From an uncultured Gemmatimonadales bacterium (lineage in GTDB: Bacteria > Gemmatimonadota > Gemmatimonadetes > Gemmatimonadales > GWC2-71-9): a DNA stretch of 64,000 nucleotides. Location of the stretch: positions 384,001 through 448,000 of the forward strand of contig CAWCFX010000006.1 of NCBI GenBank assembly GCA_963795085.1, given 5' to 3'. Each line of letters opens with the position of its first letter. Position 1 is the first letter of the stretch. Shown in pieces: positions 12,998 to 29,525 of the stretch. A program made the translations under genes and the position numbers. Under the pieces are notes generated by a model. That model was not told where the DNA came from. It worked only from the letters and a program-made list of their open reading frames with translations, and did not search any database.

Positions 12998-13016
12998 GGG
13001 TCACGCCTCGGTGATG

Positions 13017-14471
13017 TCAGGAAGGGCCGAGCGCCACGCAGACGTTCTTGGGCTCGGTAAAGAATCGGATCGCCTCGTCGCCGCCTTCGCGCCCTACGCC
13101 GCTGTTCTTCATCCCGCCGAACGGCACCCGCAGGTCCCGCATCAGCCAGGTGTTGATCCAGATGGTGCCGCAGGCCACCTGCTCCGCCACCCGGTGCGCG
13201 CGGGTGAGATCCCGGGTCCAGAGCGAGGCCGCCAGCCCGTAGTCGCTGTGGTTGGCCAGCGCCACCGCTTCCGCCTCGTCCTGGAAGGGTTGCACCGTGA
13301 CCACCGGGCCGAAGATCTCCTCCCGGTTGGTCCGGCACTCCGGGCCCAGCCCGGTGATGACGGTGGGTGACACAAAGAACCCGTCTCGACACCGCGCCGG
13401 CAGGTGTTCCGGCACGCCGCCCCCGGTGAGCACCGTCCCCCCCTCCTCGCGCGCCAGCGCGATGTAGCGCAGGACCTTGTCCCGGTGCGCCGCGGAGATG
13501 AGGGCGCCCTGCTCGGTGGCCGGGTCCAGGGGATCACCGATCACCAGCCCGCGGGCTCGCGCCACGAACCGGTCGAGAAAGTCCCGGTACACCGACTGCT
13601 CCACCAGGAGCCGGGACCCGCAGAGGCAGATCTGTCCCTGGTTGCTGAAGGTCGAGCGCACCGTGGCGGCGATCGCCTGCTCCAGGTCCGCGTCGCTGAA
13701 GATGATCGTGGGGTTCTTGCCGCCCATTTCCAGGGTAAGCTTCTTGAAGCGGGGCGCGGCGGCCGCGGCGATCTGGGCCCCGGTGGCCGTGCCGCCGGTA
13801 AACGAAATGGTCCGCACCGCCTCGTGCCCGACCAGGGCCGCCCCCGCCTTTGCCCCCAGCCCATGGACGATGTTCAGCACCCCGGGCGGCAGGCCGGCCT
13901 CCTCGCAGATCTCGCCCAGCTTCCACGCCGTCATCGGCGCCAGCTCCGATGGCTTGGCGATGGCGGTGTTCCCGGTCGCGATGGCCGGGGCCACCTTCCA
14001 TGACAACAGGTAGAGCGGCAGGTTCCACGGTGAGATGAGCCCGGCCACCCCCCGCGGGCGCCGTAGGGTGTAGTTGAGCGCCGAGTAGTCGGTGGAGTGG
14101 GCCTGCGACTCGGTGTGAAGAATCGCGGTGGCGAAGAACCGGAAGTTGCTCACCGCCCGGGGAATGTCCATGCGGGCCGCCAGCGTCACCGGCTTGCCGG
14201 TGTCCTGCGACTCCAGCCGGGCCAGCTGGTCCTGGTCCCGCTCAATCAGGTCGGCGATCCTGCCGATAATCCGGGAGCGCTCGGCCGCCGGCAGATGGGA
14301 CCAGGCCGGAAAGGCGCGTTCGGCCGCGAGAGCGGCCCCGTCCACATCGGCGGCCGTGCTGTCCGGGATCTCAGCCAGCGCCTGACCCGTGGCCGGCTCC
14401 AGGTTGGGCAGGTATTCGCCGGTGGCGGGGGGAACCTGGCAACCGTCTATGTAGTTGGTGAGTCTGGCCAT
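13017..14471 (-). CDS. 2-aminomuconate-semialdehyde dehydrogenase (ALDH8-like)
   Basis: ISPWNLPLYLLSWK, LEMGGKNP, NQGQICLCGSR, EEIFGPV; pathway context. Confidence 0.9.
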   Translation of the reverse strand: MARLTNYIDGCQVPPATGEYLPNLEPATGQALAEIPDSTAADVDGAALAAERAFPAWSHLPAAERSRIIGRIADLIERDQDQLARLESQDTGKPVTLAARMDIPRAVSNFRFFATAILHTESQAHSTDYSALNYTLRRPRGVAGLISPWNLPLYLLSWKVAPAIATGNTAIAKPSELAPMTAWKLGEICEEAGLPPGVLNIVHGLGAKAGAALVGHEAVRTISFTGGTATGAQIAAAAAPRFKKLTLEMGGKNPTIIFSDADLEQAIAATVRSTFSNQGQICLCGSRLLVEQSVYRDFLDRFVARARGLVIGDPLDPATEQGALISAAHRDKVLRYIALAREEGGTVLTGGGVPEHLPARCRDGFFVSPTVITGLGPECRTNREEIFGPVVTVQPFQDEAEAVALANHSDYGLAASLWTRDLTRAHRVAEQVACGTIWINTWLMRDLRVPFGGMKNSGVGREGGDEAIRFFTEPKNVCVALGPS

Positions 14472-14710: not shown

Positions 14711-14866
14711 GGATAGGCTGAATCGGACGGCACGTTTCTCCGTACGGCGATATGGCTACATTTATCTCGCCCATCGGGGCCGGGGGTCAACGGGATCAGG
14801 GCCCCCTTCGTATTAGGCAAGTTGCTGGCCGATCGCTATTTACATCGTGACCATCCGGAGTCCTGT

Positions 14867-15709
14867 TTGATTCGTTCGATCAAGCGCAGCGTGGCCAAAC
14901 GCTCCAATCCGCTTCCCCTGTCCTGGCAAAAGCCCTGGACCGGGGCCGCGGCGAGCATGGTGATGCACGGCCTGGTCGTGGCGGTGTTCATCTTCGGCAC
15001 CCGGCAGGGGTCCGAGGTCATGCCGACCGGCACGCCGGTGAACGGGGCCCAGCAGGTCTCGATGGTGTACCTCCCTCCGCCGCCCAACCAGCGCCGGCTC
15101 GAACAGCCGGTGTCGCGTCCCGCGCCGGACGCCGTGCAGGCGCAGGAAGACCAGATGGCGCAGATCCGCGCCCAGGCGCCCGACCTGGCACCGGTGCCCG
15201 AAGACGCCACGCCCGAGCCGGATCCCGCTCCGGAGAAGCCGCCGGAATCCATGGCCTCGATTCCTCCGCCGCCCGCGGCCGAAGAACCCACCATGGAGTC
15301 GGAGGCCAAGCGGCTGTTTGGCCGGCCCCGGCTCAATGCCCAGCCCGACAACTCCGGCCAGATGGGCGCCCGCCTCGGCAACATCTCCGAACGCGACGAA
15401 CAGGCCCGCCGCAGTTGCGTGCCCAAGGCCCGCGATCCCAACGCCCAGATCGAGATGGCGGAGTTGATCGGCCGAGTCTGGTTCGACGAAGCCCACACCC
15501 GGCCCCTGGGCGGCGCGTACCTGCAGATGATCGGCACGCCCTATTCCACCTACAGCGACAACACCGGCCGCTACCGGCTGGTCTTCGACGCGTCGCTGGT
15601 GGACGAGTGCCGCACCCAGTACGTCCGGGTGGTCGCGGCGGGCTACAGCGGCAAGAACCTGGTCCTCGGCCTGGGACCCGGCGTCAACGACATCGTCATG
15701 GGGCGCTGA
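14867..15709 (+). CDS. TonB-like membrane-anchored Pro-rich protein with C-terminal carboxypeptidase-regulatory-like domain
   Basis: SMVMHGLVV TonB-like anchor, Pro-rich linker, YSDNTGRYRL..VVAAGY beta-sandwich; TTG start with GGAG SD (14822 also possible). Confidence 0.6.
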   Translation: MIRSIKRSVAKRSNPLPLSWQKPWTGAAASMVMHGLVVAVFIFGTRQGSEVMPTGTPVNGAQQVSMVYLPPPPNQRRLEQPVSRPAPDAVQAQEDQMAQIRAQAPDLAPVPEDATPEPDPAPEKPPESMASIPPPPAAEEPTMESEAKRLFGRPRLNAQPDNSGQMGARLGNISERDEQARRSCVPKARDPNAQIEMAELIGRVWFDEAHTRPLGGAYLQMIGTPYSTYSDNTGRYRLVFDASLVDECRTQYVRVVAAGYSGKNLVLGLGPGVNDIVMGR

Positions 15710-16796
15710 GCAGGCTCGCGATCGACCCTCCCGGCACCGCCATCCGTCCTTCCCGGTTCATCGTCAGCTCGATGGTATCCTTCCCCGCGCCAAACCACCG
15801 CTCGCTCGGCTCCAGGTCGGACGGATAGGTAAAGAGCGGGAGACTCGCCGCGGCAAGCGCCGCCTGCGATCCGATGCCAGACTCCGGCATCGTCCCGGCC
15901 CACAGGGTGGCGCCATATTCCCGCGCGATTCGATAGATCCGGCACACCTCGGTGAGTCCGCCCACCCGGTGCACCTTGATGTTCCACACCTTCGGGCCGG
16001 CCAGCTCCACGATCTGGCGGGCGGCGCGGGCATCGCGCAGGGTCTCGTCCAGGCAGATCGGCGTGTGCAGCGCCCGGTCCAGCTTGGCATGGCCCAGCAA
16101 CTCGTCCGGCGGGAGCGGCTGCTCGATATAGAGCAGGCCTAGCTCGTCAATGCTGCGGAGCGCCGCCTCGTGCTCCGGCCACTCGTAGGCCCCGTTGGCA
16201 TCCACGGTGAGCGGCAGCCCGGTTCCCCGGAGCGTATCCGTGACCGCCCGCACCGGTTCCAGGTCCCAGCCCGGCGCGATCTTGATCTTGACCCGCCGGT
16301 AGCCCAGGCTCACCGCATCCCTCACCCAGCGGCAGAGCGTTTCAATAGTGCGGTCCTGCGGAATCCCCAGCGCCACCCCGCAGGGGACCGACCCGGCGCA
16401 CGGCTCTCCCAGCCGTTCACTCAGCAGGTCGGCCAGCCCGACCCCGCGGGAGGCCGCTTCCAGGTCCCACGCGGCCGTCTCCAGCGCCGCCCGGGCGAAG
16501 GGATTGCCCCGCACTCCGGTCCGGAGCGCCGCGTCGAGTGCCTCCGGGTTCTCGAACTCGCGGCCGCTGACGCGGGGAATCAGCACCTGCTCCAGCAGGT
16601 GCCGGGCGCCGGCCAGCGTCTCTTCCGAATAGAAGGGCAGCTCAAACGGGGGACACTCGCCGTAGCCGAGCGCGCCGTCCCGGCCGTGGAGCACGACGAT
16701 CAGCGAGCGCCGCACCGCTATCGTACCGCCGCTGATAATGAACGGCTCCACCAGCGGCAGTGACAGCTCGCGCAGCTCCACCCGGTCAATCTTCAT
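15696..16796 (-). CDS. o-succinylbenzoate synthase / N-acylamino acid racemase-like enolase-superfamily enzyme
   Basis: KIKIAPGWD, VDANGAY, YIEQP, ICLDE, NIK, GTMPESGIG; start MKIDRVELRE. Confidence 0.88.
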   Translation of the reverse strand: MKIDRVELRELSLPLVEPFIISGGTIAVRRSLIVVLHGRDGALGYGECPPFELPFYSEETLAGARHLLEQVLIPRVSGREFENPEALDAALRTGVRGNPFARAALETAAWDLEAASRGVGLADLLSERLGEPCAGSVPCGVALGIPQDRTIETLCRWVRDAVSLGYRRVKIKIAPGWDLEPVRAVTDTLRGTGLPLTVDANGAYEWPEHEAALRSIDELGLLYIEQPLPPDELLGHAKLDRALHTPICLDETLRDARAARQIVELAGPKVWNIKVHRVGGLTEVCRIYRIAREYGATLWAGTMPESGIGSQAALAAASLPLFTYPSDLEPSERWFGAGKDTIELTMNREGRMAVPGGSIASLLSAP

Positions 16797-17931
16797 GGGC
16801 CTCCGCGAGGTCGAGGAACCGGAGCACGCCGTCGCGCCGGTGGATGAGTCCTTCGCCCTCGAGATCCAGCATCCCGGCCACCAGTCCGTGCTGGGGATGG
16901 AACACGAGCTGGTGCAGCGCGCGCGCGGTGCGGGACCCCGCGGTGGCCGCGTACTCGCCCAGGGGAAGCTGGAAGAAGGTGTGCAGCTGCACGCTGGCGC
17001 AGCCATGCCGGGCGTAGTCGAGCACCATGCGGCCGGTGTTGATGTTTCCGGTGCCGGCAAGCGGGAGTCCCACCGCCCGGGCCCGCGGGCGCGCCAGCAC
17101 CCGGAGATTCCGGTCGCTCAGGTCCCATCCGCCGTAGGCCACGCCGAGAGCGGGATCGAAGAGCCGGTTGAATACCACGGCGCCCGCGGCTCCACTCGCC
17201 GCGGCGGCCTCCAGCATGCGCAGCTGGAACTCGTCATCGAACCGGGCGTTCATCAGCTTGAGGGCCAGCCTGGTGGACCCGTGCGCGGCGGTGACCAGCC
17301 CCGGCACCTCGCGGATCCAGCGAAGAATCCGCTCCTGCTCGTCCCCCAGCAGGTCGCCGGCCAGGGTGGGCGAGAAATCTTTTTCCAGGAGAAGCGGCTC
17401 GCTCCCCCACGCCGCGGCGATCTGGCCGGTTGTCCACTGGTACTCCTCCTCGCGGAACGGCTCCTCCAGCCGGGGGAGATGGAACTTCACCGACGGCACC
17501 ACCAGCAGCGATCCCGCTCGGGTGAAGTCGCGGCCGACCCGGACCAGCGCGAGGTAGTCCTCCAGCGAGCGGTCCCAGCCCCGCCCCTTCCAGGTCACCG
17601 TCCACCCCGCTCGGCCCGTCGCGGAGAGCCGCGGCTCCACCAGCATCCGGGCCTCGTGAATCGCCCAGGCCACCATGGACTGCGCGCCGCCTTCATCCTC
17701 CGCGATCACCGTCTTGAGCACGGTGTACGCCAGCCCCGCCTCGGCGTCCGCGGCGAGCTGTTCCTCCTTGAGCGAGAGCTGGCCGCTTCCCTTCCCTATC
17801 GGATGGGGGAGCGGGACGCCGAGGTAGGACGCGGTGAGGTCGATCCCGTACTGCTCCCGCACCACCTGGGGCCAGTCGGCGGGAAGACCCTCCCGGAACC
17901 GTTCGAAGTCAGACTTGAGACTGGCGCGCAT
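16786..17931 (-). CDS. Dihydroorotate/dihydropyrimidine dehydrogenase-like FMN protein
   Basis: DLTASYLGVPLPHPIGKGSG, VLKTV, LKL, FNRL, AGTGNI, ASVQLHT. Confidence 0.7.
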   Translation of the reverse strand: MRASLKSDFERFREGLPADWPQVVREQYGIDLTASYLGVPLPHPIGKGSGQLSLKEEQLAADAEAGLAYTVLKTVIAEDEGGAQSMVAWAIHEARMLVEPRLSATGRAGWTVTWKGRGWDRSLEDYLALVRVGRDFTRAGSLLVVPSVKFHLPRLEEPFREEEYQWTTGQIAAAWGSEPLLLEKDFSPTLAGDLLGDEQERILRWIREVPGLVTAAHGSTRLALKLMNARFDDEFQLRMLEAAAASGAAGAVVFNRLFDPALGVAYGGWDLSDRNLRVLARPRARAVGLPLAGTGNINTGRMVLDYARHGCASVQLHTFFQLPLGEYAATAGSRTARALHQLVFHPQHGLVAGMLDLEGEGLIHRRDGVLRFLDLAEAHED

Positions 17932-18785
17932 GCTGCACGGCCGCGATCACGCGGGCCCGGTCGGAATCGGGAAGGGACGGCCCCCACGGGTCATCGCAGG
18001 AGTCGTCGGGGATGATACTCTCGGCGGCGAGGGCCCAGAGCATCCGGCGGATGTATCCCTCCATCGGCTCGGTGAAGGTGGCCTGGGCAAACTCGTCGCA
18101 GACGGCGGAGAGCCGGTGGAAGCGGTCCCAGTCGGCGGCGGCGTGGCTCTGGAGCAGGTCCGCCTGGATGTCGGTGAGGGCGGCGCCCATGCCGATGAGC
18201 GCGGTGGTGGCGCCCATCATGATGGAATAACCCAGGAAGCGGTCTTCCCCGGTGATCAGCCGCTTGCCGGGATGCTTCCGCAGCAGGCCCGCGATCCTCT
18301 GAAACGTCATCACCGAGTCCAGCGTGGCGACCTTGATCCCGGCCACTTCGGGCAGGTCGAGCAGCGCGTCGAGCACCTCGTCGCTGTACGACACTCCCCC
18401 GGCGGCGGCATAGAGATGAAAGACGATCGCCGGGCAGCTCGCGGCCCAGCCGGCGATGATACTCGACCGGGCTGTCGGCCTGGGGGAAGACGAGCAGCGC
18501 ATCGGCGCGGCCCCGCCGGGCCTCGATCGCCATGGTGATGTCCCGGGCGCCGGCGACGATCACCCTGTCTGGAAGCGCCTCGCGCCAGATCTCCAGCACC
18601 AGGCGGCGCTGGTCGGCGCTCAGGTGCGGGCCCCGGCCGGTGTGGGCCCACACCGCCACCCCGGCGACCGGCTGCCCAGCCATCCAGGCCGCGTACTTCC
18701 GGAGCGCCGCCTCGTCAATCGTGTTCCCTCGGAAGGGCACCGGTACGGCGGGAATCAATCCGTCGGGGATGGGCCGCGGCGCCAT
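17909..18785 (-). pseudogene. DHDPS/NAL-family aldolase with +1 frameshift near 18432
   Basis: N-half (GLIPAVPVPF, AHTGRG) and C-half (FHLY, GIKVA, TGED) lie in different frames; CTG CCC G GCG ATC has one extra base; may be an assembly error. Confidence 0.8.
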
Positions 18786-18790
18786 GGGCG

Positions 18791-19576
18791 TCAGCTCCGC
18801 TGGCCGAGGGTGGCCGCGTTGCCGCTTTCGATGGAGGCGCGCTGGGCGTCGGTGAGATCGCTCAGGTCCAGCTTGGCGGGGCCATTCTCTGGCAGCCGGA
18901 GCGGCATGCCGGTGCCGAAGACGAACCGCTCGGCGCCGATGGTGCCGACCAGCGTCTTGAGATGGTCCTCCGGTGGTCCCCAGATCCAGGAGATGTCCCA
19001 CCAGATGCGGCCGGCCTCCTCCGGCGTGGACCCGAAATGCACCTCCTCGATGAACCCGCGATCGGCATGGGTGATGATCATGCGGAGCCGGTGGTGCGCC
19101 CGCACCAGCCCGCGCACCGTGGCGGGCGAGAGATCGGGCGCCACGTCGTTGGGATGGCGCTGCCGCAGGTCCTCCAGCTTCACCGCCATCAGGAGCGGCA
19201 ATCCCATCTCTCCAGACGCCGTCGCCAGGGCGTTCATCGCGGCGCCGGCCGGGTCCATGCCGAGGAAGTTGGGATCGCAGCGCACCGCGGGGGCGCGGTG
19301 GCGGCGCGCCTCGTTCATTACGTCACGCCAGTTGGCCAGCTCCGGCTGCACCGAGGGCACCGGGCGGAACCGGGGTTCCTTCTCCGCCGTCTCGTAGAGC
19401 CAGCCATTGCCCTCGGAAGGGTCCTTCCAGAAGAGGCTGGGCAGGTGGCTCACCCAGGCCTGCGCGATGCCGACCCGGTCCATGTCCGCGAGCACGGCGG
19501 CGGGCGTGGTCCCCGGGACTCGCCGGAAGGGATAGGAGCCGAGGAAGACGTTGACGTCGGTGATGGAGGGAGGCAT
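18791..19576 (-). CDS. Amidohydrolase_2 family protein lacking the HxH motif
   Basis: DVNVFLGSYPF, MDRVGI, IITH, RFVFGTGMP. Confidence 0.8.
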   Translation of the reverse strand: MPPSITDVNVFLGSYPFRRVPGTTPAAVLADMDRVGIAQAWVSHLPSLFWKDPSEGNGWLYETAEKEPRFRPVPSVQPELANWRDVMNEARRHRAPAVRCDPNFLGMDPAGAAMNALATASGEMGLPLLMAVKLEDLRQRHPNDVAPDLSPATVRGLVRAHHRLRMIITHADRGFIEEVHFGSTPEEAGRIWWDISWIWGPPEDHLKTLVGTIGAERFVFGTGMPLRLPENGPAKLDLSDLTDAQRASIESGNAATLGQRS

Positions 19577-20376
19577 CAGTCGAGCGGAAAGGCGTTGGGA
19601 GGAAAGATCCCGGCGGCGTTCCGCCAGCGGATCTGTTCGAGCTGTTCCGGCGTCACCAGCGACTCGAGCCGGCGTAGCTTGGCGAGCCCGGTGCAGAGGG
19701 TGATGTCGGCGCCCCAGAGCAGCCGGTTCGCCCCGACGCTCTCCAGGCACTGTTCCAGCATCCCGCCATCCACCCCGCTGCCTGAGAGATCGATGAACAC
19801 GTTCTCGACGCCGCGCGCGACGTGCAGGGTGTGGATCCAGTCGCCGCCGCCCCCGATGTGGGCCAGGATGAACCGGGTCCGGCTGTGCCGGCCGGCCAGC
19901 TCACAGAGCTCGGCGCCGTCGCTGGCTTCCTGCCCCGGCCAGTCCCGGCGGCGGCGCTGCCAGACGTGGTGCAGGATCGGCGCGCCCCGGTCCGCCGCCA
20001 GCTGGCAGATGGGATCGAGCAGGCGGTCGTTGGCCCGCCGGCTGGCGGCCAGCTTGATGCCGATCATTCCCTGGCCCAGCTTGCGCTCGATTTCCCGCAG
20101 CGCGTGATCGAGGTAGTTGGGATTCACCGCGACGTAGCCCCGCACCCGGTCCCCGTGGGCGGCACAGAGCTTCATCATCTCGTCGTTGCCCAGCTCCACG
20201 TCGGCGGGAGACGGAAAATAGACGGGCGAGGTGAGTCCCCAGCTGCCGAGGATGGACGCGACGTGAATGGTGATGCCGATCCGCTCCCCGGCCTCCATCC
20301 GGCTCCGGTTGCGTTCCTGCCAGTCGCCGCGCGGGGTGCGGGCGTGGTAGAAGTGGGCGTGCACGTCAATCAGCAT
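19576..20376 (-). CDS. Amidohydrolase_2 family metallo-hydrolase
   Basis: IDVHAH, ILHH, ILAHIGGG, DLSGS, LLWGAD. Confidence 0.85.
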   Translation of the reverse strand: MLIDVHAHFYHARTPRGDWQERNRSRMEAGERIGITIHVASILGSWGLTSPVYFPSPADVELGNDEMMKLCAAHGDRVRGYVAVNPNYLDHALREIERKLGQGMIGIKLAASRRANDRLLDPICQLAADRGAPILHHVWQRRRRDWPGQEASDGAELCELAGRHSRTRFILAHIGGGGDWIHTLHVARGVENVFIDLSGSGVDGGMLEQCLESVGANRLLWGADITLCTGLAKLRRLESLVTPEQLEQIRWRNAAGIFPPNAFPLD

Positions 20377-21533
20377 CAGACCATTCCCCCCAGGACTTCG
20401 TCCAGCGTGGAAAGAACGGCGTCAATTTCACCGGGTCCGTGGGCGAGGGAGACGAAATTGTAGGCCGACCGCTTGAACAGCACGCCCCGCTTCGCGCACT
20501 CCCGGGCCGCCTTGAACGAGGCGTCTTCGCTCCGGAACCTGAGATGGCACATCTCGGGGATACCCGCGACGCCGGGCGCGACGGTCGGATACTTCTTCGC
20601 AAGCGATTCGAGCCCTGCCATCAGGCGGGCGCCCGCCTCGCCCAGCCGGCGGGGGACGCCTTCCCGGCGCATGAACCGGATGGTGGCGAGGGCCGCGGCC
20701 AGCGAGGGCATCTCGGTCGCCAGGGTGGAGGAGATCCAGGTGCGCCGGGCGGCCATCATGACCTCGCGGCTCCCGCCTACCGCCGCGATGGGGAACCCGT
20801 TGCCGATCGCCTTGCCCAGCACCATGAGATCGGGATGGACGCCGAACCGCTCCGCCGCACCGCCGATCGCGAGCCGGCACCCGGTCTTGATCTCGTCGAA
20901 GACCAGCACCGCTCCGACTCCGGCGGTCTCCTCGCGGAGCGCGGTGAGCCATTCCATCGAGGGCAGCCGGTCTATCACCGGCTCGATCACGATGGCGGCC
21001 AGCTTGTCGCCGTGCCGGCGTACCTGCTTCCGCAGGTCCTCGATGTTGTCGAACTCGAGGACCCCCAGGGCCGCCATGGTTCCGTCCGGCACGCCGGCGC
21101 CCTGGCTGCACCAGTCCAGCCAGCCATGGTAACCGCACCCCAGCACCATGGTCCGCGCGGTGTGCACCCGGGCGATCCGCACCGCCGCCGCGACCGCTTC
21201 CGCCCCGGTCTTGAGAAAGATCACCTGCTCGATCCAGGGGATGGCGTCGGCCAGTTCTTCGGCCAGCATTTCTTCCAGCTCCGGCGCCAGCGGGCCGACG
21301 ACGCCGGCGGTGATCCCGCCGATGGCGGCCCGGTTCACGTCGGGGTGCCCATATCCCAGCGCGACCGCGCCCAGCGCCATGATGCAGTCCAGGTACGTCC
21401 GCCCCTGGTCATCCCACACCCGGCACCCCTCGGCGCGCATCAGGCGGCCGGGCAGCCCGCTCGGATCGCCGGGGCCGAACAACGCGTCCGGCCGCTTGGA
21501 GCCCGTGGAGGTAACGCCGGGGATGCGGTTCAT
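20376..21533 (-). CDS. Class III aminotransferase (GSA-aminomutase-like)
   Basis: GCRVWDDQG.TYLD, KTGAEA, GYHGW, FDEIKTG, GKAIGNGFP (PLP Lys). Confidence 0.9.
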   Translation of the reverse strand: MNRIPGVTSTGSKRPDALFGPGDPSGLPGRLMRAEGCRVWDDQGRTYLDCIMALGAVALGYGHPDVNRAAIGGITAGVVGPLAPELEEMLAEELADAIPWIEQVIFLKTGAEAVAAAVRIARVHTARTMVLGCGYHGWLDWCSQGAGVPDGTMAALGVLEFDNIEDLRKQVRRHGDKLAAIVIEPVIDRLPSMEWLTALREETAGVGAVLVFDEIKTGCRLAIGGAAERFGVHPDLMVLGKAIGNGFPIAAVGGSREVMMAARRTWISSTLATEMPSLAAALATIRFMRREGVPRRLGEAGARLMAGLESLAKKYPTVAPGVAGIPEMCHLRFRSEDASFKAARECAKRGVLFKRSAYNFVSLAHGPGEIDAVLSTLDEVLGGMV

Positions 21534-24250
21534 GTCGCCAGCCTGAGAAGGCCGAAACGCGCCGGGTCCTGCCGGTCACCCCTGAGATAGACCCAGCCGG
21601 CGCCGCCGCTCCACACCAGCTGCCCGGCGCGGCGCTGGCGGCCGGGGCGCATCTCGTTTACCAGGAGATCGAACTCCAGCGGCACCCGGTCGTCCATGAC
21701 CCACCCGGGCTTGATCGCCAGGGTGACCCGGTAGCCTTCCGGCGTTTCCGCCCAGGCGCCCGTCACCATCGCGGCGTCACCGGCATAGGGCGACGCCAGC
21801 GCCACCCGGACATCGCCGGAGCCGGGGTCGGGTATCACCAGGAAGCCGAGTACCCGGTCGTCCTGCTTGAGGTAGAGCTGCAGCCCATCGCTGTGAATGT
21901 CGTCCACCTCGTTGTCGAGGCCCAGGGGAGCACTGGTGGCGGCACGGAGAACGATGTCCTCCTTCTTCACCTCGGCCAAGAGAAAGAGATCGTCGTCGCA
22001 CCAGTTGACCCAGGCGGTCGCCGAGAAGTAGTCGGCATCGGCGTAGGGCTCCTCGCTCCGGCGGTACTGGAGCTCGGTATCGAGGGTGATCGGCTCCGAG
22101 AGGTCGAACCCTTCGTCCGACCCGTCCAGGGCCGGCGGCTCGCTGACCCAGGCCGCGGTGGCGGCGGGCCGGTCCGTCCCGGGACGGGTGAAGATGGGCT
22201 CCGGCTCCAGCATCCGCCGCTGGACGCCGGCCAGCTTGATCACCGTGTCGCCCCGCTCGACCTGCCAGCCCTCGAGCAGCGGCGTATGCCGGTCGGTGCC
22301 GCCATGTTCAACGGTAACGACATCGCCCTCGAGGGACAGCCCCGTGATCCGCGCATCGGGCGAGGTGTCGATCACCGTCACCATCCGGCTGGAGGCCGCG
22401 GTCGCCCGCGCCAGGTAGAAGACCTGCTCGCCGGTGCCGGGGGGACCGGGAGCCCGGGCCCGGAGCAGGTCCCCGTCGAACCGGAGATGCAGGCGGCAGC
22501 CCCGGCCACCGGCAGCGGACCGGATGATGAATCCTCCCGCCGTCTCCGGGATGAACTGCTCGGCCTCCCGCACGAACTCGCCGGCCACGCTGTCGGCGGC
22601 GATCCGTTCCCAGCGGCCCGGCGTCTCCACCATGCTCTCGCCGGCCAGGTGCCACGGAAGATCCAGCCGGTGGGTCATGGTGTCGGAGTAGGTGAGGATA
22701 TCGAGCAGATATTCGGGACCCGCCACGACGGTCCGGTCGAACTCGCGGAAGCGTCCCCGCATCCAGCCCCAGTCCCCTTCCTGCTGGAACATCTCGCAGT
22801 CACCGCCTTCATAGGGCTGCGAGTGGCCGTCCAGCAGGGGAGCGTTGTGCGCGAGGGTCGAGCGGTACCAGAAGAGATCGGGGCTGACGTAGCTGCCGGT
22901 GCCGAAGTCGGGAAGCCAGTGCACCCCGCCGGCATGCAGGGCCAGGTGCAGCCGGTCGGGGTGGCCATGCCCGCCTCCCGGCTTGCCGCACTCGAGGCTG
23001 GCGTAGCGGTCGCCCTGGCGCAGGATCGCCAGGCCCTGGGTGGGAAAGTGCCGGCCCGATGGCGTCCACGGTTCGCTCGCCTGCAGCTCCGCCGGCATGA
23101 AGAGCAGCGACCACCAGGAGTGATCGCCGCGTCCCCGGTGCACCGGCGCCGTCTCTCCCGCCTCGTGCAGGTAGGACTCCAGCGGCAGCGCGGGTTGCGC
23201 GGGCGCCTGGTAGAGCGCCGCCAGCCACGATTCCAGCGCACCCGGCTCCCCGCCGCCCAGCAGCCCGCGTCCCACCTCCCACGTCTCCAGGTGCATCGGC
23301 TGCGCCAGGGAGACGCCGAAGCGGGAGTCTTTCCGGGCGGGGAAAGTGAAGTCGGGCAGCGCGGTGAGGGCGGGCGCCAGGAGCGCCGCGCGCAAATGAC
23401 CGGCGACGTCCTCGTCCTCCAGCAGGTGGGCGCCGAGGGAGGCTGCCCAGCCGAGTCCGGTGAGGAGGCCGCGCAGCGCGAAGAGATGGTAGTTCTCTCC
23501 CTCGTACCAGGTGCCGTCGTCCCCGAACCCGTCGGCCAGGTGTCCCATCAGTCCGGTGCGCTCTTCTATGGAAGAGCGGGCCAGGTCTTCATCACCGAAC
23601 CAGGCGGCGATCGCGGTGAGCGCGGCGGCGTGCCAGGTCTGCCGGTTGGAGAGCCCCTCGTTGAAGTCGCCGATCACGCTGGCCGCCTCGTCCGCGATGG
23701 CATCCACGGTGGCGGAGAGGTCCTCGGGCATCCGGTCCGATTCCCGGAGCAGCGTCGCGGCGGCCAGGTAGTTGAGGATCCAGAGCGACTCGAGGTAGGT
23801 AGAGAAGAAGAGGTGGGTGGGGCCCAGCACGTTGTCGCGGTTGGGGAGCTCGAAGTAGAGCGGCTGATAGGCGCCCAGGATCCGGGCCGCCTGTTCTCCC
23901 GCGGCGTCGTGGTTTGCCAGCGCGGCCACAGTGGCGAGGTGGGCGGCCCGCTCGCTCAGCCAGAGATGCTGGAACTTGGCCCAGTGCCGGTCGTGGCGCT
24001 CCCCCCGGACCATCTCGCCGCAGGAAGGGCACCGGTGCGCATCGGGCGACCAGGGGTCGAAGGCCAGCGCCGTCCCGTCTTTGGGGCAGGTGCCGCCATC
24101 CCTGGAGAGGAGCGCCTTTACCTTCGGCACCGGCGGCATCTTCTTGAGCACCGGCTCCGCCCGCTCCACCAGCCGCTGCTGCAGCGCCTGCAGGTCGGGC
24201 GACGCCGCGATCAGCACGCGCCGCTCCTCCAGCTGTTCCCGGGTCACCAT
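21530..24250 (-). CDS. Heparinase II/III-like lyase with C-terminal CBM9-like domain
   Basis: SNRQTW, WYEGENYH, GHGHPDRL, WYRSTLAHN; C-terminal PPALDG..DGLQLY; no signal peptide. Confidence 0.8.
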   Translation of the reverse strand: MVTREQLEERRVLIAASPDLQALQQRLVERAEPVLKKMPPVPKVKALLSRDGGTCPKDGTALAFDPWSPDAHRCPSCGEMVRGERHDRHWAKFQHLWLSERAAHLATVAALANHDAAGEQAARILGAYQPLYFELPNRDNVLGPTHLFFSTYLESLWILNYLAAATLLRESDRMPEDLSATVDAIADEAASVIGDFNEGLSNRQTWHAAALTAIAAWFGDEDLARSSIEERTGLMGHLADGFGDDGTWYEGENYHLFALRGLLTGLGWAASLGAHLLEDEDVAGHLRAALLAPALTALPDFTFPARKDSRFGVSLAQPMHLETWEVGRGLLGGGEPGALESWLAALYQAPAQPALPLESYLHEAGETAPVHRGRGDHSWWSLLFMPAELQASEPWTPSGRHFPTQGLAILRQGDRYASLECGKPGGGHGHPDRLHLALHAGGVHWLPDFGTGSYVSPDLFWYRSTLAHNAPLLDGHSQPYEGGDCEMFQQEGDWGWMRGRFREFDRTVVAGPEYLLDILTYSDTMTHRLDLPWHLAGESMVETPGRWERIAADSVAGEFVREAEQFIPETAGGFIIRSAAGGRGCRLHLRFDGDLLRARAPGPPGTGEQVFYLARATAASSRMVTVIDTSPDARITGLSLEGDVVTVEHGGTDRHTPLLEGWQVERGDTVIKLAGVQRRMLEPEPIFTRPGTDRPAATAAWVSEPPALDGSDEGFDLSEPITLDTELQYRRSEEPYADADYFSATAWVNWCDDDLFLLAEVKKEDIVLRAATSAPLGLDNEVDDIHSDGLQLYLKQDDRVLGFLVIPDPGSGDVRVALASPYAGDAAMVTGAWAETPEGYRVTLAIKPGWVMDDRVPLEFDLLVNEMRPGRQRRAGQLVWSGGAGWVYLRGDRQDPARFGLLRLAT

Positions 24251-25257
24251 GCGCGGACACCCGCCGGCGAGAAGGTCACCGGCAGCACCCGGGCTCCTTC
24301 CGCCCGCGCCGCTTCGGCGACCTCCTCCGGCCGCTCCTTCGCGAGGAAGAACATGCATCCGCCCGCCCCGGCGCCCGCCGCCTTGCCGCCGAACACGCCC
24401 GCCGCCCCGACCACCTGCTCCAGCCGAGCCATGGATTCGGTACGCATCCCCGGGTCGAGCCGGCACTGGTGGGCCCAGTTCTCGCTCAGCAGCGTGCCCA
24501 CCCGCGCCGGATCCCCAGCGCGGAGCGCCTCCGCCATCCGGGCCGCGACGTCTTTCATGCCATGAAACGCATCCACGATGTATCGCTCTCCCCGTTCATA
24601 GCCCTGGATGACCCGGCTGATCATCCGTCCCGAGATGCGCGAGGTGCCGGTGTAGCAGAGCACGGTGTGCCGCTCGAGGAATTCCAGGAACCCGGTATCG
24701 AGATCGAGCCGCTCCGTCTCTACCGCCGGGTCCCGAAAGGTAATCCGGCGAAACCCGCCCAACGCCGCCGCCCACTGGTCCTGTTTGCCTCCCGGCATGC
24801 CCGCTTCCACCACCTCCAGCCGCCACGCCGCCTCGGCGACATCCTCCAGGGCCACCTCCTGCCCGGCCGCCCGGCTCAGCGCGCTCACCAGCGCCACGTC
24901 CAGTGCGCCGGAACTGCCGAGCCCGGAGCCGGCCGGCGCGTCCGAGCGGGTCACGACCGTGGCGTTCGTCACCGGGTACATCCGCACGGCGGTCTGCAGC
25001 AGCGGCAAGTCGCCGCTGGACGTCAGGGCACTCACGCCGTCCACTCTGACTTCCTGGCCCAGGTCCTCCGAGCGGAGCAGCAGGCCCTTTCCGCCCCGCG
25101 TCACCGTCACGTGGGCGGAGAGACCGATGGCGGCATTCACCACCAGCCCGCCTTCACGGGCGGAGAAGGGAGGCACATCGGTCCACCCGCCGGCAAAGTC
25201 CAGCCGGAGCGGTGCGGCGGCGTGCCAGACCCGGGGCGCGGCGTTCCTGTCAGTCAT
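24244..25257 (-). CDS. GHMP kinase (HddA/fucokinase-like sugar kinase)
   Basis: APLRLDFAGGWTD, PAGSGLGSSG, GGKQDQ, GKAAGAGAGG. Confidence 0.9.
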   Translation of the reverse strand: MTDRNAAPRVWHAAAPLRLDFAGGWTDVPPFSAREGGLVVNAAIGLSAHVTVTRGGKGLLLRSEDLGQEVRVDGVSALTSSGDLPLLQTAVRMYPVTNATVVTRSDAPAGSGLGSSGALDVALVSALSRAAGQEVALEDVAEAAWRLEVVEAGMPGGKQDQWAAALGGFRRITFRDPAVETERLDLDTGFLEFLERHTVLCYTGTSRISGRMISRVIQGYERGERYIVDAFHGMKDVAARMAEALRAGDPARVGTLLSENWAHQCRLDPGMRTESMARLEQVVGAAGVFGGKAAGAGAGGCMFFLAKERPEEVAEAARAEGARVLPVTFSPAGVRAW

Positions 25258-26701
25258 GGCCCGCCGTCCACCGGGTGACGGTGGCCAGCTCGCCGCGCAG
25301 GTCCATTCGCACGTTCCGGACTCTGCGGTTCATCCCCTGGACTCCTCGCGCATGATATAGGAAGGCCACCGGCACCGACCGGGCGAATTCCTGCTGGGCC
25401 AGGGCGGGGTCGGCCGGGATGGCGATGCCGGCGAGATCGGCCAGTTGCCGCAGGTGGCCCAGCCCCAGGTCGCCGGCGGTGCCCAGCACCGCGGCCTGGA
25501 AGTCGGGGCGGCGGCTGTTGACCCGGTCGAGAAAGGCGGTCAGCTCCATCTGCCGGATGGTGATCCGGACTCCTACTGTCGCCAGCTGGGCCTGGATCAT
25601 CTGTTCCAGCGCCGCCTCGCCGCTTCCCACCGTGAGCAGCTCGATCGCGATCTCCCGGCCCGCCAGCGCGGCGCGGGCCGAATCGAGCTGCACCGGAGCC
25701 GGGGGTATCGCAAGATACCCGGGGACATCGGGGGGCACCGGCCCGGTGGCCACGGTGCCGAATCCATAGATATAGCCATCCACGATCTGCTGCCGGTCCA
25801 TGGCCTGGCCGATGGCCCGCCGCACCCGCTCATCGTTGAAGGGAGCGACGCGGGTGTTGAACACCACCCCGTAGGTGAAGAGCAGCGGGTAGGAGAGGAC
25901 GTCCAGTTCCGGGTTCTCTCTCACGAACGACGCGTGGGCCGGCTGGATGCCCGCGAAGTCCAGCTCGCCCGAGGCGAGCGCCGCCAGCTTGGTGGTGGGT
26001 TCATCCACCACCGCGATGACCAGCCGCGCCAGCCGCGGCGGGCCGCCCAGCTCGGCGGGAAAGTCCGGGTTGGCCTCGAACACCCAGCGGCGGTTGGTCT
26101 CGTGCCGCACGAACCGGAAGGGGCCGTTCCCCACCGGCCGGTCATTCCAGCCGGCGGAGCGGATCCGGGCGAGATCCACCGTGTCCAGCAGGTGCGCCGG
26201 CAGGATGGCGAGATCGGTCAGCACGTCGGGCACGCCGGGCTGGGGCGCGGTGAACCGCAGCACCAGCGTCGAGTCGTCGGTGGCATCGGCTCGGGCGAGC
26301 GTGGCAAGATCGGAGAGCCGGGGATAGCCGGTGACCGGGTCCCGGGCGGCGTTCAGCGTCCAGGCCGCGTCCCCCGCGGTGGTGGGGACGCCGTCGTGCC
26401 AGCGAAGCGTCGTGTGGAGGTGGAAGGTGAGCGTGGTTGAATCGGCGGACCACGCCAGGCTGCGCGCCAGGTAGGGCTCGATGGCGAGCGTGGAGTCGCG
26501 GCGGACCAGCGTGGTGAGCAGCACGTAGCGCTGCACCTGCCGGGCCAGCGGATGCACGGTGATGAGCGGGTTGGCGCTCTGCAGGTCGGCGCCGGAGGCG
26601 AACATCACGGTGGCGCCCCGACGGTCGGCGGGGCGGCCGCAGGCGGCGAGGCAGGCGACGAGGGCCAGGAGGCGGGGGGCGGTGAGTCTCACGTGAGACA
26701 A
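25250..26701 (-). CDS. ABC transporter family 5 substrate-binding lipoprotein
   Basis: LAAC lipobox, WHDGVPTTAGD, PVGNGPF, PFNDERVRRAI; start 26701 or 26692. Confidence 0.9.
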   Translation of the reverse strand: MSHVRLTAPRLLALVACLAACGRPADRRGATVMFASGADLQSANPLITVHPLARQVQRYVLLTTLVRRDSTLAIEPYLARSLAWSADSTTLTFHLHTTLRWHDGVPTTAGDAAWTLNAARDPVTGYPRLSDLATLARADATDDSTLVLRFTAPQPGVPDVLTDLAILPAHLLDTVDLARIRSAGWNDRPVGNGPFRFVRHETNRRWVFEANPDFPAELGGPPRLARLVIAVVDEPTTKLAALASGELDFAGIQPAHASFVRENPELDVLSYPLLFTYGVVFNTRVAPFNDERVRRAIGQAMDRQQIVDGYIYGFGTVATGPVPPDVPGYLAIPPAPVQLDSARAALAGREIAIELLTVGSGEAALEQMIQAQLATVGVRITIRQMELTAFLDRVNSRRPDFQAAVLGTAGDLGLGHLRQLADLAGIAIPADPALAQQEFARSVPVAFLYHARGVQGMNRRVRNVRMDLRGELATVTRWTAGHD

Positions 26702-26729
26702 ATACTATTACATCGCTAGATTGTTTCCC

Positions 26730-27704
26730 ATGCTTCGCCATCTTGCCCGGCGGCTGGTGGTGGGCCTCGCCATCGTGGCCGGCGTGGTCACCCTGACCTT
26801 CTTTCTCCTGCGGCTGGCGCCGGGGGACCCGGTGGAGCAGCTGCTGGGTCCGGCCGCCACCGCCGACCAGGTCGAGGCCCAGCGCCGCGCACTGGGGTTC
26901 GACCGGCCCCTCGCGGTGCAGTACCTGGCCTGGATGGGCCGCTTCGTGCGGGGCGACTGGGGCACCAGCGTCGCCACCGGGCGGTCGGTCGCCGGCATGC
27001 TGGCCGAAGCGTGGCCCGCCACCGCCGTCCTGGTGGTCCTCTCGCTCCTGGCCAGCTATCTCCTCGGCATCCTGGTCGGCGTGGTCCAGGCGGGCACCCG
27101 CTCCCGCCGGCTGGACACCACCCTCTCCGTCACCACCGTCACCCTCTTCGCCATGCCGGGCTACTGGCTCGGCCTCATGCTGGTGATGGTGTTCACCTAC
27201 TGGCTCGGCGTGCTCCCCGCGTTCGGCGCCGAGGGGCTGGATGCCGACTTCCTGTCGGGGTGGGACCGGCTGGCCGACCGGCTGAGCCACCTCGCGCTGC
27301 CGCTGGCCACGCTCACCCTGGTCGGCATCGGCGGGGTCGCGCGGTTCGTGCGGGGCGCGATGCTGGACGTGAAGCAGTCGGCGTTCGTCACGGTGGCACG
27401 GGCGAAGGGCGTGGGCGAGCGGGCCATCAACCTCCGCCACGTACTGGGCAACGCGCTCATCCCGGTCGTCACCCTGCTGGGTCTCTCCCTGCCGGCGCTC
27501 TTCTCCGGCGCGGTGTTCATCGAGGCCATCTTCGCCTGGCCGGGCGTGGGGCGGATCCTGGTCGAGGCGGTGCGGGGGCGGGACTACCCGGTGGTCATGG
27601 CGGCCACCAGTGTCAGCGCCATGCTCGTCGTGATCGGCAACCTGCTGGCGGACTGGCTGGCCACGCGGGTGGACCCGAGGCTCCGGAGCGCCCATGGCGA
27701 CTAG
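26730..27704 (+). CDS. ABC transporter permease (OppB/DppB-like)
   Basis: LAPGDP, GDWGTS, ARAKG...RHVLGNA, RDYPVV. Confidence 0.92.
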   Translation: MLRHLARRLVVGLAIVAGVVTLTFFLLRLAPGDPVEQLLGPAATADQVEAQRRALGFDRPLAVQYLAWMGRFVRGDWGTSVATGRSVAGMLAEAWPATAVLVVLSLLASYLLGILVGVVQAGTRSRRLDTTLSVTTVTLFAMPGYWLGLMLVMVFTYWLGVLPAFGAEGLDADFLSGWDRLADRLSHLALPLATLTLVGIGGVARFVRGAMLDVKQSAFVTVARAKGVGERAINLRHVLGNALIPVVTLLGLSLPALFSGAVFIEAIFAWPGVGRILVEAVRGRDYPVVMAATSVSAMLVVIGNLLADWLATRVDPRLRSAHGD

Positions 27705-28563
27705 CGCCATTCCGCTCCGCCGGCCCTGGGCGGGCGGGCTCCTGGCCGACGGCCGCGCGCGGTTCGGCCTCGCCGTGCTCGGCCTGGTCGTGCTCACCGC
27801 GCTGTTTGCTCCGCTCCTCTCCACCGGCGACCCCAACGCCCAGGTGAACGTCGTGGCCACCCGGTTCCTGGCGCCGTTCGCCACCGACCTCAACGGCGTG
27901 TTCCATCTATTGGGCACCGACCGGTTCGGGCGGGACGTGTGGAGCCGGCTGCTCTACGGCGGGCGGATCTCGCTGGCGGTCGGTGTGCTCGCCATGGCGA
28001 TCTCGGTGGCGCTGGGCCTGCTGGCCGGCGCGATGGCGGGGGTCTTTCAGCGCCGGCTCGGTGCCGGCGTCATGGGATTCACCGACTTTGCGCTCGCCCT
28101 GCCCCGGGTCGTGCTGCTGCTGCTGCTCACCGCCCTCTGGCCGCCCAGCGCGGTGCTGGTGGTGCTGGTGCTGGGGTTCACCGGGTGGATGAGCATCGCG
28201 CGGCTGGTCTATGGCGAGACCCGGGCGCTGGTGGCGCGACCGTTCGTCGAAGGCGCCTACGCGCTGGGCGCCCGGCGGTTCCGGGTGCTGTTCCACCACG
28301 TGGTGCCCAACGTGCTCACCCCGGTCATCGCGGCCGCGGCGCTGGGGGTGGGCAACGCCATCATGCTGGAGGCGGGGCTCTCGTTCCTCGGCCTCGGCGT
28401 CCAGCCGCCGGCGGCCTCCTGGGGCAACATGATCGCGTCGGGGCGGGACACCCTGGTGAACGCGCCCTGGGTGGCGGCGGCGCCGGGGGTGATGCTGGTG
28501 CTGGTGGTGGTGGCGTTGACCCTGCTGGGGGACGCGATTCAGCAGAGGCTCAGTAAGCAGTAA
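27694..28563 (+). CDS. ABC transporter permease (OppC/DppC-like)
   Basis: HLLGTDRFGRD, FVEGAYALG, EAGLSFLGLG, SWGNMI. Confidence 0.92.
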   Translation: MATSAIPLRRPWAGGLLADGRARFGLAVLGLVVLTALFAPLLSTGDPNAQVNVVATRFLAPFATDLNGVFHLLGTDRFGRDVWSRLLYGGRISLAVGVLAMAISVALGLLAGAMAGVFQRRLGAGVMGFTDFALALPRVVLLLLLTALWPPSAVLVVLVLGFTGWMSIARLVYGETRALVARPFVEGAYALGARRFRVLFHHVVPNVLTPVIAAAALGVGNAIMLEAGLSFLGLGVQPPAASWGNMIASGRDTLVNAPWVAAAPGVMLVLVVVALTLLGDAIQQRLSKQ

Positions 28564-29420: not shown

Positions 29421-29525
29421 ACCGCCCTGTTCTACCGCCCTGTTCTACCGCCCTGTTCTACCGCCCTGTTCTACCGCCCTGTTCGTCTTACCGCCCTGTT
29501 CTACCGCCCTTTTCTACCGCCCTGT
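29421..29525. repeat. 13-mer tandem repeat (CTACCGCCCTGTT)n; also 29271-29320
   Basis: About 8 units; the last one supplies the stop of the AAA_33 gene. Confidence 0.93.

Follow-up and report, generated by a model that had tools for sequence, protein, structure and literature searches.

The window analyzed here is a stretch of 64,000 nucleotides (G000:C6:384001-448000) on contig C6 of G000, our designation for a 3.89 Mb, 93.4%-complete genome of a soil member of the Gemmatimonadales. It harbors an uncharacterized catabolic gene cluster in which nine genes on the minus strand encode, in this order, a solute-binding lipoprotein (SBP), a GHMP-type kinase (KIN), a heparinase II/III-like protein (HEP), a class III aminotransferase (AT), two amidohydrolases (AH1 and AH2), proteins resembling dihydrodipicolinate synthase (DHDPS) and dihydroorotate dehydrogenase (DHODH), and an enolase-superfamily enzyme of the N-succinylamino acid racemase/o-succinylbenzoate synthase (NSAR/OSBS) subfamily. 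Two genes for permeases of the ATP-binding cassette (ABC) type, PERB and PERC, diverge from them. The cluster is real, occurs throughout the order, is modular, and combines an ABC importer and an intracellular lyase/glycosidase with downstream enzymes that match no described pathway. We propose, with a probability of roughly 0.55, that it serves the import and cytoplasmic degradation of an α-mannoside-containing, probably uronate-bearing oligosaccharide or glycoconjugate. What points most strongly to the substrate is found outside the window: in 58 of 92 loci, a gene for an α-mannosidase of glycoside hydrolase (GH) family 38 is linked to the cluster, and its phyletic pattern matches. An interpretation offered earlier in a preliminary description of the same DNA, which was made from the letters alone, is supported in part.

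Conservation, modules and the GH38 partner

At a genomic GC content of approximately 69%, raw lists of open reading frames (ORFs) are crowded, and GC content at third codon positions (GC3) was used to tell real frames from shadow frames. GC3 values of 0.83-0.95 together with Pfam and NCBIfam scans back all nine minus-strand genes, from 26701 down to 15696. These genes and the two divergent Dpp-type permease genes are real and belong to the families first named for them; gene order and overlaps had also been read correctly. The block runs PERC-PERB and, divergently, SBP-KIN-HEP-AT-AH1-AH2-DHDPS-DHODH-OSBS, with gene junctions in the window that either overlap by 1-23 nt, starts and stops overlapping, or leave a gap of 5 nt. 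Each cluster protein is encoded by a single copy in G000, as found by a search of the genome, and at least five of them lack a match to any named equivalog.

A scan with HEP, using one genome per species, returned 587 stretches with a HEP relative. The best 80 of the 587 loci, all from Gemmatimonadota, were kept, and gene order in them was determined by tblastn with the proteins of the window. Twelve further, more diverged loci (33-40% identity for HEP) were added, resulting in a set of 92 loci. Gene order is retained in the 80 loci at 50-70% identity, while the twelve diverged loci keep the core. The preliminary description had made its interpretation dependent on conservation of gene order in relatives, and this is what the 92 loci exhibit. 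It had also described the nine genes as one operon, yet they do not form an indivisible unit. KIN is located between SBP and HEP in 78 of the 86 loci having both and is absent from eight, one family lacking the gene; of 54 loci for which at least 4.5 kb following AH2 are available, 36 contain the complete set of DHDPS, DHODH and OSBS. The cluster is modular: its core consists of the importer, HEP, AT, AH1, AH2 and GH38, the kinase is optional, and the DHDPS/DHODH/NSAR-OSBS trio is an add-on. Genes flanking the cluster differ between loci.

The placement of the GH38 gene follows few patterns. It is convergent to PERC at a distance of 9-2377 nt in 40 loci, follows OSBS on the operon strand in 17 (-12 to 964 nt) and follows AH2 in one, and among loci with 3.5 kb or more on each side, just two lack it. 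With a catalytic domain that begins at residue 6, the enzyme has no space for a signal peptide. In G000, GH38 resides 66 kb to the right of PERC in a DUF58-TPR-GH38 block and still points towards PERC. As the same block adjoins PERC in locus L009, about 66 kb of DNA came between the two in G000 by insertion or rearrangement. The separating DNA comprises positions 28563-64000 of the window and continues to G000:C6:478569. Its left end (28.6-33.1 kb) is compositionally odd with poor coding signal and contains genes for a lambda Bor-like lipoprotein (30140-30577) and an AAA_33 kinase (29514-29978). Beside single loci (L012:3396-5249; L045:191-1792; L066:3643-4542), genes related to glycans or lipid head groups were noted, i.e., a NagB+PIG-L fusion, a GH29 α-L-fucosidase and a glycerophosphodiester phosphodiesterase.

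Co-occurrence was assessed in one fixed set of 151 Gemmatimonadota genomes that was searched with four proteins at E<=1e-30; the tallies include G000 and the unpublished genome G062, and each count shifts by one without the latter. HEP is present in 75 of the 151 genomes, namely in 54/71 of family f1, 18/31 of family f2, 2/2 of family f3, 0/46 of nine other families, and in G000. AH1 was detected in 76 genomes, the 75 HEP carriers plus G090. GH38 occurs in the 75 HEP carriers within f1-f3, and eight distant copies were found in family f10. Note that 30 genomes of f1 and f2, families that include carriers, jointly lack HEP, AH1 and GH38. The DHODH-like protein is encoded in 35 genomes, all of them HEP-positive; it is present in none of the 31 genomes of f2 and was also not found in five 'short' genomes whose loci end at AH2. 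Complete single-contig genomes in the sample (G072, G108 and G141) have the short form of the cluster. In the sampled genomes, the cluster is confined to the order Gemmatimonadales, where 74 of 104 (~70%) carry it when the genome of the window is excluded.

Table 1 Features of the cluster and of the adjacent kynurenine set in window coordinates.
Feature	Position	Strand	Evidence or members
PERC, DppC/OppC-type ABC permease	27694..28563	+	PF00528 (BPD_transp_1) 99.7 bits; NF045476 Opp4C 232 vs cut-off 350
PERB, DppB/OppB-type ABC permease	26730..27704	+	PF00528 128.8 bits, PF19300 47 bits
Divergent intergenic region, AT-rich, 28 nt	26702..26729	.	Sequence inspection
SBP, family-5 (peptide/nickel/opine/oligosaccharide type) solute-binding lipoprotein	25250..26701	-	PF00496 (SBP_bac_5) 226 bits
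KIN, GHMP kinase, HddA/WcbL/fucokinase (sugar anomeric kinase) branch	24244..25257	-	PF00288 and PF08544
HEP, 906-aa lyase-like protein, no signal peptide	21530..24250	-	PF07940 (Hepar_II_III_C) 50.3 bits, PF05426 (Alginate_lyase) 22.3 bits
AT, class III pyridoxal phosphate (PLP) aminotransferase/aminomutase-like	20376..21533	-	PF00202 163.4 bits
AH1, Amidohydro_2 amidohydrolase	19576..20376	-	PF04909 86.5 bits
AH2, divergent Amidohydro_2 paralogue	18791..19576	-	PF04909 37.1 bits
DHDPS/NAL-family class I aldolase-like gene, frameshifted	17909..18785	-	GC3, tblastn with intact relatives
DHODH-like, putative FMN TIM-barrel oxidoreductase	16786..17931	-	Weak DHODH signal
NSAR/OSBS-subfamily enolase-superfamily enzyme	15696..16796	-	TIGR01928 236 bits vs cut-off 200.65
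Kynurenine set	7090-14471		3-hydroxyanthranilate dioxygenase, ACMSD-type amidohydrolase, kynureninase, FAD monooxygenase, tryptophan 2,3-dioxygenase, RidA, aldehyde dehydrogenase

On its left flank the cluster is bordered by kynurenine-pathway genes; nothing related was found on the right flank. The kynurenine set looks complete and abuts the cluster in the window; in relatives, the two are not adjacent. Its aldehyde dehydrogenase gene (13017-14471) was considered as a member of the cluster and rejected, as it groups with the kynurenine genes and is not located beside the cluster in relatives. A convergent plus-strand gene (14717-15709) with a weak CarboxypepD_reg-like match, unassigned to a family, adjoins OSBS not only in the window but also in loci L004 and L009. 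Scans of the window with tRNA and Rfam models gave no matches, and a promoter/terminator scan did not rise above shuffled expectation.

Importer, lyase-like protein and kinase

Uptake by a divergent peptide-type ABC system had been postulated in the preliminary description. SBP and the two permeases of the Dpp/Opp type bear this out, and the ATPase is not adjacent. The N-terminus of SBP reads ...LLALVACLAACGRP, i.e., a signal peptide with a LAAC that resembles the lipobox motif of lipoproteins. No NCBIfam equivalog was reached by SBP, the best match being NikA with 90.6 bits against a cut-off of 393. PERB starts at ATG 26730 or TTG 26721 and is adjoined by PERC in relatives too. No gene for an ABC ATPase was found beside PERC among the window ORFs scanned or in the relatives' loci examined. 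SBP and two permeases thus stand without the two ATPases that complete an Opp/Dpp-type importer locus, and the only oligo_HPY-type ATPase pair of the genome is part of a complete Dpp operon at C6:240-246 kb, about 165 kb away. SBP and PERB diverge across only 28 nt, or 37 nt if SBP starts at GTG 26692, and this short region is AT-rich in a genome of 69% GC. A sigma-70 consensus promoter was not found within these 28-37 nt. Since a gap of this size cannot hold leaders on both sides, the SBP and PERB transcripts are probably leaderless or initiate inside the neighboring gene.

HEP comprises an N-terminal Cys3His cluster, an alginate-lyase-type N domain, a Hepar_II_III_C domain and a C-terminal domain of about 200 amino acids that resembles carbohydrate-binding module family 9 (CBM9). 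Both domains typical of polysaccharide lyase (PL) families 15 and 17 and of heparinase II/III are detected, PF07940 clearly above its cut-off of 24 and PF05426 barely above its cut-off of 22.2. PF06452 is precomputed on many HEP homologues, and a homologue from Clostridia carries PF16889 and PF06452. Across 32 sequences, down to 34% identity, C55, C74, C77, N253-Y254-H255, H428, H430, D432 and H468 are invariant, and H72 is present in at least 90% of them. HEP thus resembles exolytic oligo-uronate lyases of families PL17 and PL15, including the solved PL17 alginate lyases 7bjt and 4nei, in the succession of an alginate-lyase-type toroid and Hepar_II_III_C, in the lack of a signal peptide and in conserved His/Asp and Asn-Tyr-His motifs. 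It differs from them by the additional Cys3His cluster, the CBM9-like domain and a similarity that is marginal at E=7e-4 to 5e-3, and its lyase activity is putative.

In a library clustered at 50% identity, 1823 relatives of HEP were detected at E<=0.001, 304 of these at E<=1e-30. One distant cluster (28% identity) stems from Clostridia on contigs from activated sludge and digesters and has the same domain order including CBM9_1. These clostridial homologues are encoded 6 kb from an α-mannosidase of family GH92. A lyase-like protein near an α-mannosidase is thus seen again in another phylum, where the mannosidase belongs to another family. The clostridial neighborhood (L097:738-21246, L096) also contains genes for a GLMA/GH42-like protein, GlpA/GlpB-like dehydrogenases, an FGGY kinase, an FAD-linked oxidase and an acetyl-esterase-like protein, and it may represent a separate utilization locus for a related substrate.

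KIN is a GHMP kinase by both Pfam domains. Its score of 136.9 bits with the HddA model NF049969 is far below the cut-off of 600 and does not identify it as HddA. The closest structures are 3k85 (E=7e-41) and 4usk (E=1.3e-34), and manno-heptose phosphate kinases and fucokinase are its nearest relatives.

Aminotransferase, amidohydrolases and the terminal enzymes

AT scores 179 bits with the HemL model TIGR00713, for which the cut-off is 527.3. Its nearest solved structure is a glutamate-1-semialdehyde aminomutase (GSAM, 2e7u, E=2.7e-47), followed by the aminoglycoside C-6' aminotransferases 7lld and 9au3. A pairing of the kinase with a class III phospho-lyase was considered and dropped, as the nearest relatives of AT give no support for it.

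The preliminary description had included a deacylation step. Such a step has no basis, since both amidohydrolases are PF04909 proteins of the type of aminocarboxymuconate-semialdehyde decarboxylase (ACMSD) and lactonases and not acylases, and AH2 even lacks the HxH metal ligands. In AH1, D4, H6, H8, K108, H137, H164, H173 and D224 are invariant among 37 sequences, and the metal-ligand set of PF04909 (HxH, His, His, Asp) is intact with H6, H8, H137, H173 and D224. In AH2, HxH is replaced by D7/N9. ACMSD structures are the best of the weak matches of AH1 in the PDB (profile, E=3.4e-7), while neither sequence nor profile searches of the PDB with AH2 gave anything below E=0.3. Look-alikes of AH2 in the Atlas are nearly all from Gemmatimonadota clusters. 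The two proteins are distant paralogues according to hhalign (90.8% probability, 23% identity). A predicted AH1:AH2 complex attained a model score of 0.92, the best of three controls reaching 0.00; for comparison, this mark was attained for 116 of 157 solved complexes and for 2 of 215 mismatched pairs. Model runs agree in at least 95% of contacts, with a predicted local distance difference test (pLDDT) value of at least 93 for the partner. The model supports binding of the two proteins to each other, as a predicted heterodimer of one catalytic and one degenerate subunit. Catabolism of hydantoin- or pyrimidine-like rings was dropped as a candidate, as AH1 is a PF04909 protein and not of the hydantoinase type.

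The DHDPS-like gene is frameshifted in the assembly. GC3 switches frame between ~18500 and ~18400, and tblastn with intact relatives gives two high-scoring segment pairs, one in frame -2 and the other in frame -3. Their junction lies at 18432-18439, and a single additional base within CCCGGCG accounts for the shift. Among relatives having both halves of the gene, 37 of 38 encode them in one frame. Only three public metagenome runs carry 0.07-0.13 of the sampled words of the stretch, and none of their contigs spans 18414-19423; RNA datasets were not among the runs listed as carrying it. The frameshift is either a sequencing/assembly error or a fresh mutation. Because of it, the N-terminal frame in the window scores only 18.4 bits with PF00701 (cut-off 22.1); the intact protein from locus L077 reaches 37.5 bits over positions 4-273 of 289. 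On NCBIfam models, the DHDPS-like protein scores at most 26 bits.

For the next gene, described earlier as encoding a DHODH-like flavoprotein, the reality of the gene stands and the identity as a DHODH is weak. There is no Pfam match at E<=1, and NF005741 is matched with 23.7 bits against a cut-off of 303. A profile aligns with the C-terminal part of solved DHODHs in the PDB at E=0.05-0.09. Neighbors in the Atlas are almost all Gemmatimonadota clusters, with PF01180 in 11-19% of their members. The protein itself does not match PF01180, which in a scan of the whole genome detects only C1:931466. Its best 120 public homologues are mostly annotated as 'hypothetical protein' and stem from Gemmatimonadota. 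The family appears almost confined to this phylum, and its likeness to DHODH is a weak lead.

The enolase-superfamily enzyme passes TIGR01928 as the sole copy in the genome above the cut-off. The best structural match is 3mwc (283 bits); N-acylamino acid racemases of Thermus, Deinococcus and Amycolatopsis are matched as well, with 2zc8 and 1r0m among the structures of such racemases. The next-best model for an enzyme acting on sugar acids, L-talarate/galactarate dehydratase, is matched with only 79 bits against a cut-off of 500. In an alignment with 5fjr_A, K161/K163, D189, E214, D239, K263 and R266 (5fjr numbering) are all identical. As far as the accessible text of PMC12006748 goes, K163 and K263 have catalytic roles in the NSAR/OSBS subfamily and R266 is a second-shell determinant of racemase specificity. 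By its score above the cut-off and its full set of catalytic and specificity residues, the enzyme resembles the Amycolatopsis NSAR and the Deinococcus and Thermus racemases covered there. Its context differs from those given in the same accessible text: it is neither part of a men operon nor of an operon for D-amino acid conversion with a succinyltransferase and a hydrolase, and instead ends a glycan-type cluster. Neither the window nor the scanned loci of relatives encode members of the N-succinyltransferase or N-succinyl-amino-acid hydrolase families.

Proposed function and alternative explanations

Import and breakdown by lyase cleavage and phosphorylation had already been suggested in the preliminary description; a catabolic scheme in which the first enzyme is lyase-like and the kinase resembles sugar-1-kinases fits the evidence. 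From the protein families, we infer the following route. The lipoprotein SBP and the two permeases would import the compound, powered by the single DppD/DppF pair that the genome encodes elsewhere. The cytoplasmic, PL15/PL17-like HEP would cleave it, possibly by β-elimination at a 4-O-substituted uronate, with the CBM9-like domain holding the sugar end. GH38 would then release α-mannose, and the HddA-like kinase, where present, may phosphorylate a manno-configured sugar set free in this way at its C1. What remains, a fragment bearing a carbonyl or an amine, would be converted by the GSAM/GenB-like PLP enzyme and the AH1:AH2 heterodimer. For roughly half of the carriers, further conversion towards pyruvate-type central metabolites may follow, by the DHDPS-like protein as a Schiff-base lyase, the DHODH-like flavoprotein and the NSAR/OSBS enolase as a racemase or dehydratase.

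Several observations weigh against this proposal. The scanned loci revealed no GH88, KduI/KduD, KdgK or uronate dehydrogenase. Peptides, nickel and opines are also among the ligands of family-5 SBPs, and solved PL17 lyases match HEP only at the marginal level given above. An FAD amine oxidase resembling MSOX or N-methyltryptophan oxidase is encoded in 9 of 54 loci (414.7 bits versus a cut-off of 257 in L067) and, like the NSAR-type enolase, points to N-substituted amino acids instead. Among the 75 GH38 matches, four are weak at 33-34% identity and located far from HEP, and related genomes in the sample are not independent. The favorable AH1:AH2 model may be explained by likeness to solved homodimers of the amidohydrolase family; ACMSD is a homodimer. 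Finally, HEP and AT are separated in 37 of 82 loci by a gene for a TrmJ-type RNA methylase (TIGR00050, 177 versus 167 bits), and genes for Yip1, PilZ and EF-P are interleaved in the loci of relatives. Given these unrelated genes, and an operon for alternative complex III (ACIII) that comes after the cluster in diverged loci, the synteny may in part reflect inherited genome order. Examples of the TrmJ-type tRNA 2'-O-methyltransferase gene are found at L030:12784-13527 and L081:9517-10410; the homologue in G000 resides elsewhere (C1:823101-823880).

That no named pathway could be matched in the preliminary description has proved correct, as the downstream enzyme set fits none described. In the literature library searched, no publication combines a heparinase, a GHMP kinase, an aminotransferase and an amidohydrolase, and none of those listed for Gemmatimonadetes with GH38 and a polysaccharide lyase is about this cluster. 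In its logic, the layout is closest to that for the use of xanthan oligosaccharides, documented in the accessible part of PMC10881899 as a combination of a lyase, ABC uptake and intracellular GH38/GH92. As described there, loci of Microbacterium sp. XT11, Ruminococcaceae R.UCG13 and Bacteroides intestinalis share with our cluster ABC uptake, a lyase step and a signal-peptide-less GH38/GH92, roles that are genetically linked here too. According to the same text, the xanthan loci use PL8, GH88, GH3 or GH94 and family-1 sugar SBPs, none of which occur in our cluster, where HEP is PL15/PL17-like and cytoplasmic, and they contain no counterparts of AT, the amidohydrolase pair and the DHDPS/DHODH/NSAR genes. 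By this comparison, the cluster is not a member of the xanthan type.

The linked GH38 enzyme is reminiscent of MngB from E. coli, a cytoplasmic GH38 mannosylglycerate hydrolase. The enzymes of relatives match the MngB model NF007331 over residues 2-823 of 887 (E=2.8e-111) and also lack a signal peptide; they differ in that their 373 bits remain under the cut-off of 1138, and neither a phosphotransferase system (PTS) nor a glycerate kinase is present. The superfamilies of the later enzymes are closest to those of the oxidative pathway for D-galacturonate and D-glucuronate, in which KdgD belongs to the DHDPS family. In Agrobacterium tumefaciens, this pathway comprises Udh, Gli, Gci, KdgD and KGSA dehydrogenase and, in the accessible text of PMC6353982, employs the amidohydrolase Gli, the enolase Gci and KdgD in series. 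The same superfamilies are represented in our cluster, which is not a member of this group either: there is no uronate or NAD-dependent dehydrogenase in the operon, the enolase is NSAR/OSBS and not Gci, AH1 and AH2 match no named lactone isomerase, and the DHDPS-like protein scores low on NCBIfam, as given above. It is conceivable, and we put this forward tentatively, that the cluster encodes an undescribed route. In such a route, the GSAM-like PLP enzyme would act after cytoplasmic lyase-like cleavage on a sugar-derived aldehyde or an amino-aldose, shifting or adding an amino group, and the AH1:AH2 heterodimer and then, in half of the carriers, the DHDPS-like, DHODH-like and NSAR/OSBS enzymes would process a nitrogen-containing or cyclic intermediate. 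If true, these would be the first NSAR/OSBS-subfamily and DHODH-like enzymes acting on a carbohydrate-derived substrate, in place of steps of the KduI/KduD/KdgK type.

In automatic annotation, four of the genes would appear as housekeeping menC, dapA, pyrD and hemL. The one result in line with these names is the passing of TIGR01928 by the single enolase copy of the genome. The preliminary description had called the names probably wrong and pointed to the lack of men, dap, pyr and hem genes nearby, and indeed none were found among the window ORFs scanned. A physiological MenC would be accompanied by the rest of the classical menaquinone pathway including MenB, for which the best match in G000 is below threshold (170.6 versus 342.7 bits). 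No match to the DapA family (TIGR00674) was obtained in G000 at E<=0.001, the canonical DHO_dh gene is the one at C1:931466, and a better HemL candidate is encoded at C6:149217 (350.6 bits versus 175.4 for the AT of the cluster). Scores of the cluster genes with the hemL, dapA and pyrD equivalogs are far under the cut-offs, and the DHODH-like gene is missing from 116 of the 151 sampled genomes of the phylum. The names menC, dapA, pyrD and hemL are wrong for the cluster genes, housekeeping roles are excluded, and this explanation is effectively refuted. The lack of DapA and of a MenB above the cut-off suggests that G000 uses lysine synthesis independent of DAP and a non-classical menaquinone route. 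We also regard as very improbable that the cluster makes or recycles the organism's own envelope glycan, with the kinase feeding nucleoside diphosphate (NDP)-sugar formation, AT making an amino sugar, HEP trimming or epimerizing a polymer and the importer salvaging fragments. The closest solved kinases (3k85, 4n3o and 4usk) were deposited as D-glycero-D-manno-heptose phosphate kinases or putative sugar kinases, and we take them to act in capsule heptose biosynthesis. The structures nearest to AT include aminoglycoside biosynthetic enzymes, and the cluster sits among the core genes for TrmJ, lgt and ACIII. On the other hand, no nucleotidyltransferase, glycosyltransferase, flippase or polymerase is encoded in any locus scanned, the kinase is dispensable, and GH38 and the importer favor breakdown.

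The main rival to glycan breakdown holds that the substrate is a glyco-amino acid, a glycopeptide, or an Amadori or opine-like compound, i.e., a sugar joined to an amino acid via N or O, which we judge possible though on the whole unlikely. An N-acylated substrate, also named in the preliminary description, is likewise conceivable. Following uptake by the peptide-type importer, GH38, HEP and the kinase would take the sugar, and AT, the amine oxidase of some relatives, the NSAR-type racemase and the DHDPS-like enzyme would take the N-substituted amino acid. A parallel is provided by hydroxyproline and D-amino acid routes, which use a racemase, an oxidase of the DAO family and a deaminase of the DHDPS family. 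SBP and permeases of the peptide/opine type, the amine oxidase with its score well above the cut-off, the presence of AT and the DHDPS-like enzyme in the same operon, and the retention in the enolase of every NSAR catalytic residue including R266, as these are set out in the accessible part of PMC12006748, all agree with it. The amine oxidase is, however, absent from the window and from most loci, the cluster contains no peptidase, glycosylasparaginase, acyltransferase or M20 hydrolase, which the same part of PMC12006748 gives as known NSAR partners, and the module with the NSAR and the DHDPS-like enzyme is dispensable, being absent from all 31 sampled f2 genomes and from the five 'short' genomes. 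It is rather improbable that two or three unrelated modules (importer and HEP; AT, AH1 and AH2; DHDPS, DHODH and OSBS) are adjacent merely through conserved genome order. The unrelated genes at module borders (TrmJ as well as Yip1, EF-P and PilZ), the ACIII operon next to diverged loci and the separate gain and loss of modules speak for such an arrangement. Against it stand the joint occurrence of HEP, AH1 and GH38 in 75 of 75/76 carriers and their joint absence from 30 genomes of families f1 and f2. Moreover, the third module never occurs without the first, GH38 shifts position yet stays linked, flanks vary among loci, and all junctions in the window overlap or abut.

Glycan uptake and breakdown therefore remains the explanation we prefer, and it bears on the physiology of a widespread group. 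Gemmatimonadales are abundant soil bacteria, of which few have been cultured and whose physiology is little known, and carriage of the cluster by ~70% of the sampled genomes as a single copy marks its substrate as one of importance. Pipelines misname the pathway as menC, dapA, pyrD and hemL; once it is solved, thousands of database entries would be corrected. A solution would also assign new reactions to the NSAR/OSBS, PF04909 and DHODH-like families, and it could reveal the identity of the glycan, be it from plants, fungi or bacteria, that these organisms eat in soil.

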